DNA of 64,000 bases from an uncultured Planctomycetaceae bacterium (lineage in GTDB: Bacteria; Planctomycetota; Planctomycetia; Planctomycetales; Planctomycetaceae): positions 1,184,001 through 1,248,000 of the forward strand of contig CAWFAK010000005.1 of the NCBI GenBank assembly GCA_963813715.1, in the 5' to 3' direction. The position numbers and the translations under genes are program-made. Within the stretch, counting starts at the first letter, position 1. Each line of letters begins with the position of its first letter. Of the stretch, positions 21,780 through 50,692 are shown in pieces. A model generated the notes under the pieces. It had not been told where the DNA came from and did not search any database. It was given only the letters and a program-made list of their open reading frames with translations.

Positions 21780-22011
21780 CCCAGCGGGGCGACAGAGGAT
21801 AGCCCGGTGTGTAACCCTGGGATCTCGGACGGTGGATTTCGCCTTGAGCCGCGCGAGGGGCGGCAGAGGCAACGTCGGGCCGGTGCGCCTTCACGCAACT
21901 CGTCGCAAAACAAAACTCTGTCGCCCCTCCCGGGGCTTTGGAGATTCTCTTCGGCCTCCGTTACCCAGCGTTGAAACGCTGGGCTATTTTCTGACGCCCC
22001 TGGGCGGGGCT
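21780..22011. repeat. REP family D cluster (CCCAGCGGGGCGACAG.. / CTGTCGCCCCTCCCGGGGCT / CCCAGCGTTGAAACGCTGGGCTA)
   Basis: Several mutually inverted palindromic units. Confidence 0.65.
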
Positions 22012-22168
22012 CGAATTCAGATTCGATGCGGCAGTCCACTCGCTGACGGCCCGCGTCGGCGATCCCGGAATCCGAGAAAACTGATCTTGGACGGATCTCG
22101 GTTTTGTGGCTGAATGGAGAGAGCGGATCTCGGCGCGAGCGATTGAGTGCGCACGGAGGGCACAGACA

Positions 22169-22663
22169 GTCCAGAGTCCAATGTCCAAAGTCCAAGGTCG
22201 AGAGGGACGGGACACAAATCACCCTCACCCCGACTCTCTCCCATCCGCAAAGCGGACGGGCGAGGGGGAAGAGAAGTCCGCAGGCAAGCGCAGCCCGCGA
22301 GGGATAAAGATCCCCGCCGGGGACGAATAAGGACGCCCGCCGCGGGGTGGGGATCCTTTTTTCACACAGAGTCGAGGGAAAAAAGATCCCCGGCGCGGCG
22401 GGACAAGTTGTCCCGCCGGGTCCGCCAAAAGTGGTCCCGCCGTGACGGGACTCTCACAATTGATATAAGGGGGGTGGACCCACCGACGCGAGTCCCACCG
22501 GTCAGTGTCGATCCGTTGAGTGGCGATCCGGCCCGGCAATCGGGACGGGACTCGGGGAAGTCCAATGTCCAAAGTCCAAGGTCCAACGTCGCAATTCCGA
22601 CTTTGGACTTTGGACCGCGGGACTTTGGACCCACGCTGGGACGGGACACGTTGTTTCACCGAG
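22169..22663. repeat. GTCCAAA-type heptamer arrays, GGGACGGGACAC units and a REP-A variant
   Basis: Perfect 25-bp direct repeat agtccaatgtccaaagtccaaggtc at 22175-22199 and 22559-22583; inverted heptamers at 22599-22630; REP-A variant at 22222-22268. Confidence 0.85.
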
Positions 22664-22740
22664 AAAAGCCCGGAGAAAACGGCCCCCTCACCCCGGCCCC
22701 TTGTATGTTGAAAAAAGATCAATCTGCGCATTTGATGGTG

Positions 22741-22936
22741 ACAGCTGTGGGAAGGCTTGCGAAGCGTAGCGAAGCAAGGTTTCCCACAGCGGCCGGCGGT
22801 AGATCGTCCGCCCTCAGGTCCAAGAAGACCGTGGGAGAGCTGGATCGCCGCCGGTCTCATGAGATCAGCCCGAACAGCCGTCAGAGCCGTCGTGGCGCCA
22901 GTCGCCGCTCGAGCTCGCATTCGCAAGGACGGGACA
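22741..22936 (+). ncRNA. Predicted IS110 bridge RNA, copy 1 (ends approximate)
   Basis: 5' hairpin 22744-22790; target loop with TCCGCCCT (22807-22814) and TGGGAGAG (22832-22839); donor loop with ACAGCCGT (22874-22881) and GCAAG (22923-22927). Confidence 0.85.
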
Positions 22937-22941
22937 TCGTC

Positions 22942-23894
<953 letters not shown>

Positions 23895-24291
23895 CTCTTG
23901 AAAAGAAACACAGCCGCTCTCCCGTCTTGCCGGCGTCCGCCGCTTCGGCGGTCAGTGCCGGCGCGGACTCAATACGGGGAGAGGGGGGGAGATGTGGATG
24001 GGGTCTTGGGATCCTGGGCCTGCGCTGTGCTCCGACCCAGGCTATAAGCTGTCGCGCCCCGTTGGGGCTGGAGAAGATTGGGACGGCATGGGACGGGACA
24101 CGTTGTTTCATCGAGCGTATCCCGGCAGATTCGACCGCCGTCCCTAATCGATTGCCGCCGACGGATGGTGGGCGTGCGCCCGCCCGCGGCGGATTTGTCC
24201 CACCCTACGGGATCGCGGATGAGCGAAGAGGCCCCCTCACCCCCGGCCCCTTGTATGTTGAAAAAAGGTCAATCTGCGGCATTTGATGGGG

Positions 24292-24487
24292 ACAGCTGTG
24301 GGAAAGCTTGCGAAGCGTAGCGGAGCAAGGTTTCCCACAGCGGCCGGCGATAGATCGTCCACCCCGAGGTCCCAGAAGACCGTGGGAGAGCCGGATCGTC
24401 GCCGGTCTCATGAGATCAGCCCGAACAGCCGTCGGAGCCGTCGTGGCGCCAGTCGCCGCTCGAGCTCGCATTCGCAAGGACGGGACA
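24292..24487 (+). ncRNA. Predicted IS110 bridge RNA, copy 2 (ends approximate)
   Basis: Same fold as copy 1; guides TCCACCCC (24358-24365), TGGGAGAG (24383-24390), ACAGCCGT (24425-24432) and GCAAG (24474-24478). Confidence 0.85.
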
Positions 24488-24492
24488 TCGTC

Positions 24493-25444
<952 letters not shown>

Positions 25445-25500
25445 CTCTTGAAAAGAAACACAGCCGCTCTCCCGCAAGGGGCGAGGGGAAAAGCCTCGGG

Positions 25501-25583
25501 GGACGGGACGGGACACGTTGTTTCACCGAGCGTGGCCCGAGGAATTTGGCCCTCACCCATCGGAAGCCGACGGGCGAGGGGGA
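25501..25583 (+). repeat. GGGACGGGACACGTTGTTTCACCGAG unit followed by a REP-A variant
   Basis: Same unit at 22638-22663 and 24090-24115; ccctcacccatcggaagccgacgggcgaggggg resembles 22222-22268. Confidence 0.75.
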
Positions 25584-25817
25584 AGAGACCCAACTCGCCA
25601 AAGGGCGGGAGAGTCAGGTGCTCCGCGCGAAGGGTTGGGTGTTTCGGCTGGTTGGCCAAAGACTGACGTCTGCGGGCCCTTTGCCGCAGATTCCGAACGG
25701 GTAAGACGATGTTTATGAGGTCGGCGCTGTCGGCGGACGTGGCTGATTTTGCGGCCCGACATTCGACACGCGGTCGGTCGCACGGCCGCCTGCGAGCGCG
25801 GCTCGGCCGATCTCACG

Positions 25818-26761
25818 ATGGCTCAACTGACCGAAGCACAAACCCAGCAAATCATCGACCAGTGCCGCGACCACGTCGGCCAGCTGGCCGAGACGTTTCG
25901 CACGGCGATTGGGGTGCGAGATTCGTCTGTCGGCCGGAGAGCCGAGCAGCGTCGGCGAGGCGGGCGGGCTGGCCGAGTTTCAGGTGCCGGGCCTGGCCGT
26001 GGGGATTGCCGTCGGCGATGAGGGGCTGATCGTCCTCATTCCGCAGACGTTGCCGCTGCCGGCGTGGTATCGCCAGCCCGACGTCAGCCAGAACAATCAG
26101 CTGCAGACGTTCGCGCACGAGCTGTCGACGGTGCTGCTGCCGGCCGACCTGGAGTCGCAACGCTTTGCGGCGACGGCGACCGAGAACCTGATCGAAGTGG
26201 CGCAGAGCGCGAAGGCCACGCCCTCGGCCAAGATGATCGAGCTTTCGGTCTTTCACACCGACGGCACTCACGAGGCGGCGGTGGCCAAGTTGCTGGTGAT
26301 CGTGCCGGTCGCCGAGCCGCCGGTGACGCAGCCGGCAGAAGGCTTGGGAGCGGGCGCACTCGAATCCATCGAAGAGTCGGAAGAGTTCGACGAGGGACTG
26401 GCGGAGGATGGCGAGGAGTTGATTCGACGAGGCCGGCGACGACGGCTCTGCTCAAGAGGCGGCCGCGTCGGCCGATGCGGCGCTGCGGGCCCTGCGAGTT
26501 CTCAACGTGCCGGTGACCGTCAGCGTGCGGCTGGCCGAGCGAAAGATGTCGTTGGGGACCGTGGTGGCGCTGGTGCCGGGATCGCTGGTGACGTTCAACA
26601 AGTCGTGCGAGGCCCTGCTCGACCTGTACGTGAACAATCATCGCTTCTGTCAGGGCGAGGCGATCAAGATCGGCGAAAGCTTCGGCCTGAAAGTGTCGAA
26701 GGTCGGCGTGGACGAGGAACGCCGCGAGCGGATCGTTGAAGGCCGAGGCTCCCGGGACTGA
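25818..26761 (+). CDS. FliM/FliN (SpoA) C-terminal-domain flagellar switch-like protein; two frameshifts
   Basis: MAQLTEAQ.. start; C-terminal RVLNVPVTVSVRLAERKMSLGTVVALVPGSLVTFNKSCEALLDLYVN..GEAIKIGESFGLKV. Confidence 0.8.
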
Positions 26762-47607: not shown

Positions 47608-48664
47608 CTAAGCGGCCTGGGCCGCCGGCAGTGCGTGCGAGGGACTGAGCCGGCCCAGCGAGAGTCCGAACTGCTGCAACAGCTCCACCAGCAAGGGACT
47701 CGTCAACAGGCCCAGCTCTTGTGGACGCAGGTGTGCCAGCGGATCGTGCCAGCCGTCTGGATCTCGGCTGTTCCCCCAAGACGCCAAACTCGCGACCCGC
47801 ATCAGTTGCCGGGTGGACGCCGACTTCAATCAACCGACAGCTTCCCGCCGAATGCAAAAAGCCGCGCATAATTTCGAGATTGATCCGCCCCGCGTGGCTG
47901 GTGCCGAAGTAGACGTGAGGCACCGCGACCTCCCAACCGTTCGCTGCGTTTGCCAGACGGTCGGCGTAGTAACGCTTGACCCGCGCGACGCACCAATTCG
48001 CCGGGCGAAATTCGTGAAGCACGGTGCTCCGCAACAGGCCTCGCTCCCGCGCCAACCGGAGGGCCGGGATCTGGTGTCGCTCCAACAGTTCGCGGAGGGC
48101 CGGTCGCAAGCCGGGCAGCAGCTCGATGTATTGGTGGCCATTCAGGTGCGTGGGTCGCTGCCCGTGATCTCGGAGAAATTCGACTTGAGCTGCCAACTCG
48201 GCGAGCAAAGCAGGCTCGTAGGATCGCCGACGCCGGTAAAGCGTCGCGAACAGGCGGCCAATGCCCGGGAAACAACCCCGCGCATCGAGCAGTTCGGATG
48301 GGTAACTGCGTGTCAGGGGACGTCCCTGCGTCAGGTTTAAATGCACGCCCAATTCGAGAGGAGCGTGCGGCTCGTGCAAGTCCCGTCGCACAGCGGTCGA
48401 GGGAAGTCGGCCTGCCTCGACGATCGTCTGCAGACGTTGCCATTCGCGAATCGCGCGCGCTGCGTCGGGAGCGTTTGCCAAGAGCGAGGTGGCCGTGATC
48501 AGCCCGTGCTCGAAGCCGCGCATGATGCCGTCGGTGACCGCCCGGTTCATCCCGAAATCGTCTGCGTGAAAGACGATGCGGCCGCGGCACGGGACGCTGT
48601 GCGAGACAGAGGCACTGTGCGTGACAACTGTTTTCCAGCCGCGAAGCTGTTGCGCGGAACTCAT
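47608..48664 (-). CDS. YdjC/ChbG/HpnK-family deacetylase; frameshift near 47770
   Basis: HADDFG, TATSLLAN, GVHLNLTQG, THLNGHQY and EVGVHP. Confidence 0.88.
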
Positions 48665-48823: not shown

Positions 48824-50692
48824 TTAAGTTTTTGGAGCAGCTGGAGTTAGTCGCTTCGTGCACTCTCGGGTTACGAGGCGGGAGGAGGAACAGGGGGGGG
48901 TACCTCGGTTCTGAGGTCCGGAGGTGACTCGCGCGGGGGGAAGCCCGGCGGTCAGTGTGACATCGGCCGCGGACTGAGCCAGCTCGTTGAGCAGGTCCAG
49001 ATAGGCTTTCTGTTCCTGCAGCAGGGCTGTCTGCGTGGCAAAGACGTTCAAGATGTCCGCCTGACCGGCGTCGAATTGGCGTTTGACGCGCGCCAGGTCT
49101 CCCGACAGCGACTGCACTAAATTGGAGTGTTCCTTTTCGGCCAGATTTCTCGCGCGCTGGTAGCGCTCGAGGGCCGTCTGCACTTCGACGCGCGCTCTCA
49201 TCCGCAGTGCATTGAGTCCAATGACTTTTTGGGCGCATTCGGCCTCGCGCTGGCGAGCCAGCGGCTTTCCGGAATCCCAAATCGGCAGGTTCATCTGCGC
49301 CGCGAACCCGAAGAACAGGGTTTCGAATTCGTCGCGTTCGTAATACGGACCAAACTGAATGTTTTGCACCGTGTTTGCCCGAGCAAGGTCCGCGTTTGAT
49401 TGGGCCACGTTGGTGCCAGCCTGGGCCGCACGCACGTCGGGCCGCTCGTCCGCAAAGGTCTCTGCAAGTTGGGCCGAGGATTGAACCTCGCCCGGTGCAG
49501 AGCCCGCTCCGTCAATCGGCAACCACTGAAAGTCTTCGAGGCGGCCCACCAGCTCGAACGGCCGATCGCCGACAAGGTTGAGTTGCCGTTCCAAGGCCAC
49601 CAGCGCAAGTTTGTAGTTCGCCTCGGCGAGAGCCACTTGCTTGTGGCTTTGCCGCAACGAAACGCGGGCGGTTGTGTCTTCCCCGGGTTTGGCGAGTCCC
49701 GATTTGAAGCGGCGCTCGACGTCGGCGGCCAACTCTTCGTTGAGGCTCGCCGCCCGCTGTGCGAGATCGCGGAGGTCTCGCTGATAAACCGCCGTAAAAA
49801 AGAGCTTTTCGGTCGTGGCCAAGGTGGTCAGTTCGGCGGCGATGACGCTCCAACGGATCTGGTTGAGCGCGGCGGCGGCGCTGGCCTCTCGATACCTCTG
49901 TTGGTGCGCGAGCTCGAGGGTCTGCAAAATGTAGACCGAGTTTCTAACGGCCAGCAAGTTGCCAGTGGGGTCGCGGGCGTAGGGGAGCACTTCGGCCTTG
50001 ATGGTTGGGTTGAACGGGTAATGTTCTGCGACGTCCAACATCGCTTGGGCAACGGGTTCGCCTGCGCGAAGGGTGACCAGAGTGTCATTGCGGTCCAAGG
50101 AAGTGGCGATCGCCGCGTCGAGCGACAGTTGAGGTCCGCCTGAGTCGACCGACGATCCCAATCCTCCCGGTCCGGACGGAGCACTCGCAATGGCGGCCCC
50201 CGGCCCGCTTGATGAATCGCCACCCCGACCAGAGAGGCCGGTCGACGGCGAATCGGGCGTTGGTGGCAACTTTGGCACGGTGGTCGCCACCGTGAAATCG
50301 GCAACGAAGTGGTTGGCGGCCGCCCCATCCGGTGCCGCAGACGAGTCTGGTACCGACGGCGCCGCCGCCACGCTCGGGGCGCCAGTAGCAGCCACCGGCG
50401 TGATTGGGCTGGGAGCGACCGGGGCTGGAACCGTCCCGAGCGCGGCCGGCAGTTCGCCACTCGTCGCTACGACGACTTGTGGAGCCTCGGGATCGGGGGC
50501 GTTAATGGCGGCCTGCAAAGTGTCGGTCGGCAACGGATCGACTCGGGGCGGCGAGCTTGCGTTCGCAGTGAAGCGGGTGCCGGCCCGCAGGTCGGCATTG
50601 GGGGGCGACGTTCCTGCGCTTTGACAGCCGGCCAACCCAGCCGCCAGAATTGCGATAAGAGGAAGGATCTCTCTCGCTGAGCAATTGCGCAT
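48824..50692 (-). CDS. TolC-family outer-membrane efflux lipoprotein
   Basis: Lipobox LAGC, Pro/Ala linker and OEP repeats (ERPDVRAA, LPIWD, FDAGQ..LNV). Confidence 0.85.
   Translation of the reverse strand: MRNCSAREILPLIAILAAGLAGCQSAGTSPPNADLRAGTRFTANASSPPRVDPLPTDTLQAAINAPDPEAPQVVVATSGELPAALGTVPAPVAPSPITPVAATGAPSVAAAPSVPDSSAAPDGAAANHFVADFTVATTVPKLPPTPDSPSTGLSGRGGDSSSGPGAAIASAPSGPGGLGSSVDSGGPQLSLDAAIATSLDRNDTLVTLRAGEPVAQAMLDVAEHYPFNPTIKAEVLPYARDPTGNLLAVRNSVYILQTLELAHQQRYREASAAAALNQIRWSVIAAELTTLATTEKLFFTAVYQRDLRDLAQRAASLNEELAADVERRFKSGLAKPGEDTTARVSLRQSHKQVALAEANYKLALVALERQLNLVGDRPFELVGRLEDFQWLPIDGAGSAPGEVQSSAQLAETFADERPDVRAAQAGTNVAQSNADLARANTVQNIQFGPYYERDEFETLFFGFAAQMNLPIWDSGKPLARQREAECAQKVIGLNALRMRARVEVQTALERYQRARNLAEKEHSNLVQSLSGDLARVKRQFDAGQADILNVFATQTALLQEQKAYLDLLNELAQSAADVTLTAGLPPARVTSGPQNRGTPPCSSSRLVTRECTKRLTPAAPKT

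Follow-up and report, generated by a model that had tools for sequence, protein, structure and literature searches.

The question raised by this locus was whether the long non-coding left end of an IS110-group insertion sequence in a planctomycete encodes a bridge RNA whose guides fit the target and the donor of the element itself. In this study, the 64,000-nucleotide stretch of DNA that carries the element (the window) was analysed together with the rest of the genome assembly and with relatives gathered through the intact protein (37 genome loci and 59 metagenome loci). The letters and coordinates of the original prediction, which had been made from the sequence, were all correct on re-reading. 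It is very probable that positions 22702-23916 form an IS110-group insertion sequence and that a canonical bridge RNA is encoded in its left end of 240 nt. The basis of this reading is sequence, fold, covariation, guide matches and a promoter motif; transcription, RNA-protein binding and RNA-dependent recombination of this element are what we infer by analogy.

The element, its recombinase and its target repeat

The element and its flanks comprise the following features.
22693-22701, plus strand: left target CCGGCCC (22693-22699) and left CT core (22700-22701), within a REP-like repeat
22702-23916, plus strand: IS110-group insertion sequence, copy 1, with boundaries common to 9 of 9 genomic copies
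22704-22709, plus strand: -10 box TATGTT, joined to the right-end -35 box in the circular form alone, across a 17-bp spacer
22942-23894, plus strand: recombinase pseudogene with a DEDD RuvC-like domain and a Tnp domain, carrying a 1-bp deletion after 23534
23895-23918, plus strand: right end of 22 nt, containing the -35 box TTGAAA (23898-23903) and the left donor ACAGCCG (23910-23916), followed by the CT core (23917-23918)
23919-23924, plus strand: right target CTCCCG, forming the 5' arm in the REP-like hairpin
24252-25466, plus strand: second copy (copy 9), 95% identical, with cores at 24250-24251 and 25467-25468

Copy 1 measures 1215 bp without the core, and CT cores flank it at 22700-22701 and 23917-23918. 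Within the window, copies 1 and 9 are direct repeats of a 1.2-kb element, and a genome search recovered nine full-length copies with 95-100% identity plus one fragment of 39 bases. At the left ends of all nine copies the flank stops at CT and the element opens with TGTATG; at the right ends the element closes with ACAGCCG, followed by CT and the flank CTCCC, so that the CT dinucleotide stands at both ends in 9 of 9 copies. The junctions of copy 1 read CCGGCCC-CT/TGTATG on the left and ACAGCCG-CT/CTCCCG on the right. These identical ends indicate that CT is the duplicated core, that the circle junction would be ACAGCCG-CT-TGTAT and that the rejoined target would be N7-CT-CTCCC. Moreover, the non-coding ends (240 nt on the left, 22 nt on the right) fit the layout of the IS110 group, described in the available part of PMC11208160 as a long left and a short right non-coding end, and not the IS1111 layout.

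The original prediction had assumed that the recombinase would need repair. This proved unnecessary, since three of the nine genomic copies (copies 5, 6 and 7) contain an intact gene of 317 codons; the gene is frameshifted in the other six. The base missing from copy 1 after 23534 is a G, and copy 9 has a 2-bp deletion near 24679. Because its gene is frameshifted, copy 1 makes no recombinase and is non-autonomous. The intact protein of copy 6 (P0001) matched DEDD_Tnp_IS110 (PF01548, E 3.2e-25) and Transposase_20 (PF02371, E 3e-17). Its best match in the structural database was the ISCro4 transposase (PDB 9t56; E 2.9e-42, residues 7-307), and the IS621 transposase (PDB 8wt6) matched with E 3.1e-42; the matches to these two solved transposases extend over approximately residues 8-307, nearly the full length of P0001. 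Furthermore, the catalytic residues of IS621 named in the available text of PMC11208158 (D, E, D, D and S) have their aligned counterparts in D12, E56, D97, D100 and S237 of P0001.

The element inserts into the 5' arm of a repeated hairpin, which has the form CTCACCCC(N)CC/CTCTCCC-loop-GGGAGAGGG or GGGCGAGGG. The right target CTCCC(A/G) is invariant at 9 of 9 sites, and the left target occurs in five variants: CCCGGCC at three sites, CCCGACC and CCGGCCC at two each, and CCCCGAC and CCGTCCC at one each. A genome pattern search listed 53 uninterrupted REP-like sites, approximately 50 of which are real and a few of which look unrelated; CCCGGCC is the commonest left 7-mer both at these empty sites (14) and at the occupied ones. 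REP-type targets are usual in the IS110 family, as far as the accessible portion of PMC11208160 describes them. In addition, the hairpin is often accompanied, before or after, by a second repeat, GGGACGGGACACGTTGTTTCACCGAGAAA (22637-22701, 24089-24251, 25500-25530 and many genome sites), which makes the insertion target part of a larger composite repeat unit.

A second IS110-family element was observed at eight places in the genome (contigs C5, C7, C8 and C12; L056 and L058-L064), none of them in the window. It matches PF01548 at 50-60 bits and gives no match to the covariance model R1 described below; its RNA, if any, is of another type.

Fold and covariance model of the left end

Three structural units were delimited in the left end.
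22744-22790, plus strand: 5' stem-loop of the bridge RNA, from the fold, with 11 of 15 pairs compensatory
22792-22855, plus strand: target-binding loop (TBL), with outer stem 22792-22805 / 22843-22855 and apical hairpin 22817-22820 / 22827-22830
22869-22933, plus strand: donor-binding loop (DBL), with outer stem 22869-22871 / 22931-22933 and inner hairpin 22884-22887 / 22913-22916

The original prediction had asked for a fold check and had described a 5' hairpin, gctgtgggaa (22744-22753) with ttcccacagc (22781-22790), followed by two internal loops. For the 240-nt left end, the folding energy is -104.3 kcal/mol (z -3.75), a stability that none of 200 shuffles attained. The 5' hairpin was confirmed in 16 sequences, in which 95.4% of the cells are paired, compared with 40-56% when the partners are slid. 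Within the genome itself, copies 6 and 7 differ from copy 1 in this hairpin by two compensatory double changes (22746 with 22788 and 22752 with 22782). The two internal loops were likewise borne out. Alignment A2, which contains 12 left ends from nine families, yielded a consensus in which two stem-loops each enclose a large internal loop; in this two-loop structure 94.8% of the cells are paired against 33-46% in slid-partner controls, 17 of 24 pairs are compensatory, and the covariation score was reached by 0 of 500 shuffles. The small ggtc/gacc hairpin that had been placed in loop 1 is present and forms the apical hairpin of the target-binding loop. In copy 9, where the bridge RNA region lies at 24339-24492, the target-loop stem carries one compensatory double change relative to copy 1 and the loop of the left target guide is altered to GUCCACCCCGA.

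Two variants of the 5' module coexist in this one genome (22718-22788). Between copies 1-5 and 8 on one side and copies 6-7 on the other, 13-14 of 242 left-end positions differ, compared with only 7-40 of 954 coding positions, and 12 of the 13 differences that separate the left end of copy 1 from copies 6-7 fall within 22718-22788, the 5' leader and stem-loop.

A MAFFT alignment of the full left ends (A1) was dropped because it misaligned the donor loops of Cupriavidus, and the covariance model R1 was therefore built from the trimmed alignment A2 without Cupriavidus. Extra pairs that RNAalifold placed between the left and right donor guides (A2 columns 99/147 and 100/146) were removed from the model as foreign to the IS621 architecture. 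R1, whose E-values are rough, scored the two window copies at 141.6 bits (copy 1, E about 1.8e-36) and 137.2 bits, and it recovered the four held-out Cupriavidus loci with E-values of 4e-9 to 6e-11. In the first set, 27 of 35 sources were matched, and in the eight misses (L010, L016, L018, L027, L028, L045, L046 and L047) the left end is absent, these being truncated loci or fragments. In the second set, the model matched 59 of 63 sources (60 matches), each match being on the gene's strand and immediately upstream; the four misses were three loci cut close to the gene start (L102, L107 and L111) and one that is 32% identical (L124).

Two weak R1 matches elsewhere in the window, at 48107-48197 (E 0.19) and 49501-49590 (E 0.38), lie inside long minus-strand open reading frames and were judged to be chance. 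A scan of 22000-26000 with Rfam 15, a library that may have no such family, found nothing of the bridge RNA kind on this strand up to an E-value of 1, and a weak match to Acido-Lenti-1 (E 0.86) was set aside. In L018, an 84%-identical relative without an R1 match (1200-1500), the right end is normal and the 300 bases before the start codon are unrelated to the bridge RNA; its left end seems to have been replaced or interrupted.

Guides and handshake bases

The guides were assigned by rules after IS621. According to the available parts of PMC11208160 and PMC11208158, the left target guide (LTG) and left donor guide (LDG) have the top-strand sense of the left target or left donor plus the core, and the right target guide (RTG) and right donor guide (RDG) are complementary to the core and the right side.
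22806-22815, plus strand: LTG region GUCCGCCCUC, with two registers, GUCCGCC-CU (22806-22814) and UCCGCCC-UC (22807-22815)
22832-22841, plus strand: RTG UGGGAGAG (22832-22839), then handshake guide CU (22840-22841)
22874-22881, plus strand: LDG ACAGCCG plus U, the 7-mer being the same as the 7 bases that close the right end
22919-22929, plus strand: RDG AUUCGCAAG (22919-22927), then handshake guide GA (22928-22929), read against the IS621 scheme in the available text of PMC11208158

It had been claimed that four guides match the target and donor of the element; three of these matches (RTG, LDG and RDG) are strong and one (LTG) is weak. In the RTG, GGGAGAG (22833-22839) is, as predicted, the exact complement of CT-CTCCC (7 of 7 positions), and it covaries in relatives. 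U22832, which precedes it, pairs with the next target base (A at six sites, G at three), giving eight positions. The predicted identity of ACAGCCG(T) at 22874-22881 with the left donor also held: the LDG 7-mer occupies 22874-22880, and the following U can wobble with the first core position. For the RDG, the predicted segment GCAAG is present at 22923-22927 and is only a part of the nine-nucleotide split guide AUUCGCAAG. On CT-TGTAT, the AU of this guide pairs with AT, UC is looped out, G stands opposite T and CAAG pairs with CTTG, in agreement with the nine-on-seven split pairing of the IS621 RDG as described in the available text of PMC11208160 and PMC11208158.

The handshake rule, as set out in the accessible part of PMC11208158, states that the base following the RTG should pair with donor position 7 but not with target position 7, and that for the base following the RDG the reverse should apply, with pairing to target position 7 and none to donor position 7. 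In this element, C22840 stands opposite donor G7, whereas target C7 would not pair; G22928 stands opposite target C7, whereas donor G7 would not pair. Among the relatives, all 53 distinct rows show the first handshake base of the target-binding loop paired to donor position 7 (C:G in 50, A:T in two, U:A in one); for the donor-binding loop, the first handshake base is paired to target position 7 in 31 of 38.

The right ends of relatives were located only by the LDG 7-mer followed by NT, and the right target was read off afterwards. All 12 representatives have the LDG 7-mer plus CT downstream of the gene, and the right end was located through the 7-mer in 56 of the 60 rows of alignment A3. The right targets obtained in this way gave 23 distinct combinations with the RTG, 16 of which were perfect at 7 of 7 positions, five had one non-Watson-Crick position (a wobble in one case) and two were worse. 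When 18 distinct RTGs were pooled, pairing was seen at 83 of the 90 positions outside the core; shuffling gave 30.4 on average and at most 52, and none of 10000 shuffles came up to the observed value. In three relatives (L025, L071 and L075) and at the right ends of L018 and L028, the RTG reads GGGUGAG for GGGAGAG and the insertion lies at CT/CACCC, a different point in the same kind of repeat; the LTG loops of L025, L071 and L075 also differ. This A-to-U change with CT-CACCC insertion is a natural single-base retargeting of the guide.

The LTG is the weak one. The original prediction had aligned TCCGCCCT (22807-22814) with the left target and had counted five identities, two wobbles and one mismatch. 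This tally is right, but for this element taken alone the match is not significant (p ~0.10), and the register is ambiguous. The best fit in this element has six matches and one wobble among nine positions, and the best register varies with the target variant, being GUCCGCC-CU for CCCGGCC-CT and CCGCCCU-CA for CCGGCCC-CT. The register of the original prediction, UCCGCCC-UC, gives five matches and two wobbles, and its core-binding bases are UC, not CU. Over eight sites, the mean best score was 6.375 against 5.33 +/- 0.75 in same-loop shuffles, 9.8% of which were as good. Since this score is no better than that of the shuffles, the LTG cannot be claimed from this element alone, and the putative assignment is based on where the loop lies in the fold and on relatives whose equivalent loop fits well.

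For these relatives, the left ends were located by the motif CT-T(G/A)T(A/G)T, by which 43 of 60 rows were usable; the rows left out had no such motif or fewer than nine flank bases. The best ungapped fits of 27 distinct LTG loops to their own left targets sum to 175, compared with 136 +/- 4.8 for shuffles (0 of 5000 as high), and the fit reaches 8 of 9 positions in L026, L029, L032 and L110. In L073 and L075, whose loop ends in CUCA as it does here, the best register pairs both core bases, which corresponds to GUCCGCC-CU, one base to the left of the original alignment. The comparison favours GUCCGCC-CU over UCCGCCC-UC, with the register remaining ambiguous.

In a 91%-identical metagenome relative (L072, 1240-1400), the left junction has CG for CT and the right junction keeps CT. 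Its LTG loop, UCCGGCC-CG, fits CCCGGCC-CG at 8 of 9 positions plus a wobble. The CG junction may be a target with a CG core that was resolved from one strand, or a later mutation.

Promoter, rival readings and relation to known systems

The circle junction would set TTGAAA (23898-23903) 17 bp from TATGTT (22704-22709). This junction promoter was scored at 12 positions against TTGACA-16/18-TATAAT. In 32 distinct right-end/left-end pairs of relatives, as judged from the sequence, 9-11 of 12 positions agree in 32 of 32, and a score of 9 was reached by 0 of 32 in the integrated state, that is, left flank plus left end. Moreover, the search of 22500-24100 found no promoter-like site in the integrated element.

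Sequences of the element were found in many soil and rhizosphere runs (20 holders from 17 studies, including six RNA libraries). Contigs from three RNA-library runs, with three study codes, span 22698-23923, although such contigs cannot prove transcription or show RNA ends, and their depth cannot rank the RNA against the gene; they contain the G that is missing from copy 1. No back-joint for the circle was listed in these contigs, and circle-junction or empty-site strings for this locus were absent from the genome assembly. In the contig joints that skip approximately 1240-1480 bases, the sides are short (22-45 letters) or separated by unknown letters; these joints probably come from other copies of the REP repeat.

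By analogy with IS621, the element would leave as a circle, and the joining of right end to left end would create a sigma-70 promoter, TTGAAA-17-TATGTT. This promoter would drive an RNA from near 22716, with an estimated length of approximately 220 nt, that would fold into the 5' stem-loop, a loop for target binding and one for donor binding. Together with the DEDD/Ser recombinase, the RNA would unite the circle junction ACAGCCG-CT-TGTAT with a REP-like site, ..CCCGGCC-CT-CTCCC-hairpin, and the two would recombine at the CT core. The target would be chosen mainly by the long RTG of 7-8 nt, with the LTG pairing partly. The RNA loops and ends of copy 1 are those of the intact copies, with differences at only two bases, both in the donor loop's inner hairpin; copy 1, although it makes no recombinase, can therefore probably be mobilised in trans by one of the three intact copies.

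The same facts bear on the possibility that copy 1 is a dead relic, in which the RNA is no longer produced or used and the feature is the fossil of a bridge RNA. The frameshifted recombinase in both window copies and the integrated state without a promoter favour such a relic, but the near-identity of guide loops and ends with those of the intact copies does not, nor does the presence of three intact copies in the same genome; moreover, the bridge RNA and recombinase of IS621 work in trans, according to the available text of PMC11208160. Decay of this kind is a real possibility for copy 1, albeit the less probable outcome. Far more improbable is that the left end is merely a 5' leader plus terminal DNA recognised by the protein, its flank matches being due to chance or shared ancestry. 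C-rich sequence favours short matches, which suits that explanation. It is contradicted by covariation: in many independent families, changes in the flanks are accompanied by changes in RTG, LDG, RDG and handshake positions, and the stems stay paired through compensatory changes. The homology of the recombinase to solved bridge recombinases also argues against it.

Another reading is a working bridge RNA with a degenerate LTG. The target would then be set by the 7-8-nt RTG, the core and perhaps the REP hairpin, and the C-rich LTG would be loose, with alternative registers. The five left-target variants over nine insertions beside an invariant CT-CTCCC, the change of best register between target variants and the non-significant match in this element taken alone all point in this direction, and in ISPpu10 the target stem-loop acts as a second specificity layer, as far as the available part of 10.64898/2026.03.19.712850 describes it. 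However, covariation of LTG and left target is significant across the clade, close relatives fit well (L072, for example, with 8 of 9 identities and one wobble), and the target loop of IS621 tolerates mismatches poorly in the portion of PMC11208160 available. We regard a degenerate LTG as unlikely. An equally tentative suggestion is that the roles of the target guides are inverted relative to IS621 in this planctomycete clade, such that the 7-8-nt RTG, perhaps with the REP hairpin, sets specificity and the C-rich LTG slides; if so, one RNA could reach REP variants that differ in C-tract length. The canonical bridge RNA remains the preferred reading.

The original claim of an IS621-type architecture with a CT core and a REP-like target was supported by the fold, covariation, guides and nine copies. 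IS621 of Escherichia coli (177-nt bridge RNA, PDB 8wt6) has a homologous recombinase with aligned DEDD and Ser residues. As far as its published description was available, it also shares the RNA in the long left end, with 5' stem-loop, target loop and donor loop; the CT core, the right donor starting with TGTAT, the nine-nucleotide split RDG and the handshake rule; an LDG that pairs with eight bases only; the promoter rebuilt at the junction; and a REP-type repeat as target. In the same description, the RTG of IS621 has 4 nt compared with 7-8 nt here, its LTG of 9 nt contrasts with the partial fit here, and the first core-binding base of the LDG is C in IS621 and U (a wobble) here. The present element has a planctomycete as host, another target repeat and an RNA that, at a predicted length of about 220 nt, would be longer. 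Taken together, the element appears to agree with IS621 in those features that sequence can address, the LTG aside.

The ISCro4 transposase was compared by protein alone. ISPpu10 of Pseudomonas putida is similar in being an IS110-group element that inserts in a repeated intergenic sequence bearing a stem-loop; in the available part of its description, the stem-loop extends the target on the 5' side and is GC-rich, whereas the hairpin here lies to the right of the insertion point. The seekRNA elements of the IS1111 group share the recombinase family and the RNA-guided logic, but have the RNA in a long right end and long subterminal inverted repeats, as given in the accessible text of PMC11208160. 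Here the right end has 22 nt and the structured RNA lies in the left end, upstream of the gene.

In 2024, bridge RNAs were predicted in 85.7% of IS110 elements and reconstructed for thousands of orthologues (PMC11208160, in the part available); thus the mechanism was already known, the system is not new, and this element, which may already be among the orthologues catalogued then, leaves knowledge of the mechanism unchanged. From Planctomycetota it adds a checked bridge recombinase system with several copies, for which an intact recombinase sequence, a predicted RNA, a donor and a natural target are at hand, together with natural guide variants; one of these is the A-to-U change in the RTG with CT-CACCC for CT-CTCCC within one repeat family. 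Tools for bridge editing can draw on new orthologues as raw material, and the weak LTG offers a simple test case for the contribution of each guide.

A side observation concerns the Rfam family sX15 (RF02234), which matched weakly opposite the bridge RNA, on the minus strand at 22780-22894 and 24328-24480 (25.3 and 23 bits). A full-text literature search on sX15 (Xanthomonas) and asX7 found no paper linking them to bridge RNA, and the sX15/asX7 locus of the Xanthomonas plasmid pXCV183 has no adjoining IS110 recombinase gene. The antisense RNA asX7 gives a Northern blot signal and has 10 homologues in Stenotrophomonas, according to the available text of PMC3300014. At the published sX15 locus of this plasmid (NC_007507, 116390-116526; L125 1891-2027, minus strand), R1 matched over its full length with 47.7 bits (E 1.2e-12), on the strand opposite sX15, which is that of asX7. 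On account of this strand, sX15/asX7 looks like a bridge-RNA-type element that was recorded on the reverse strand.
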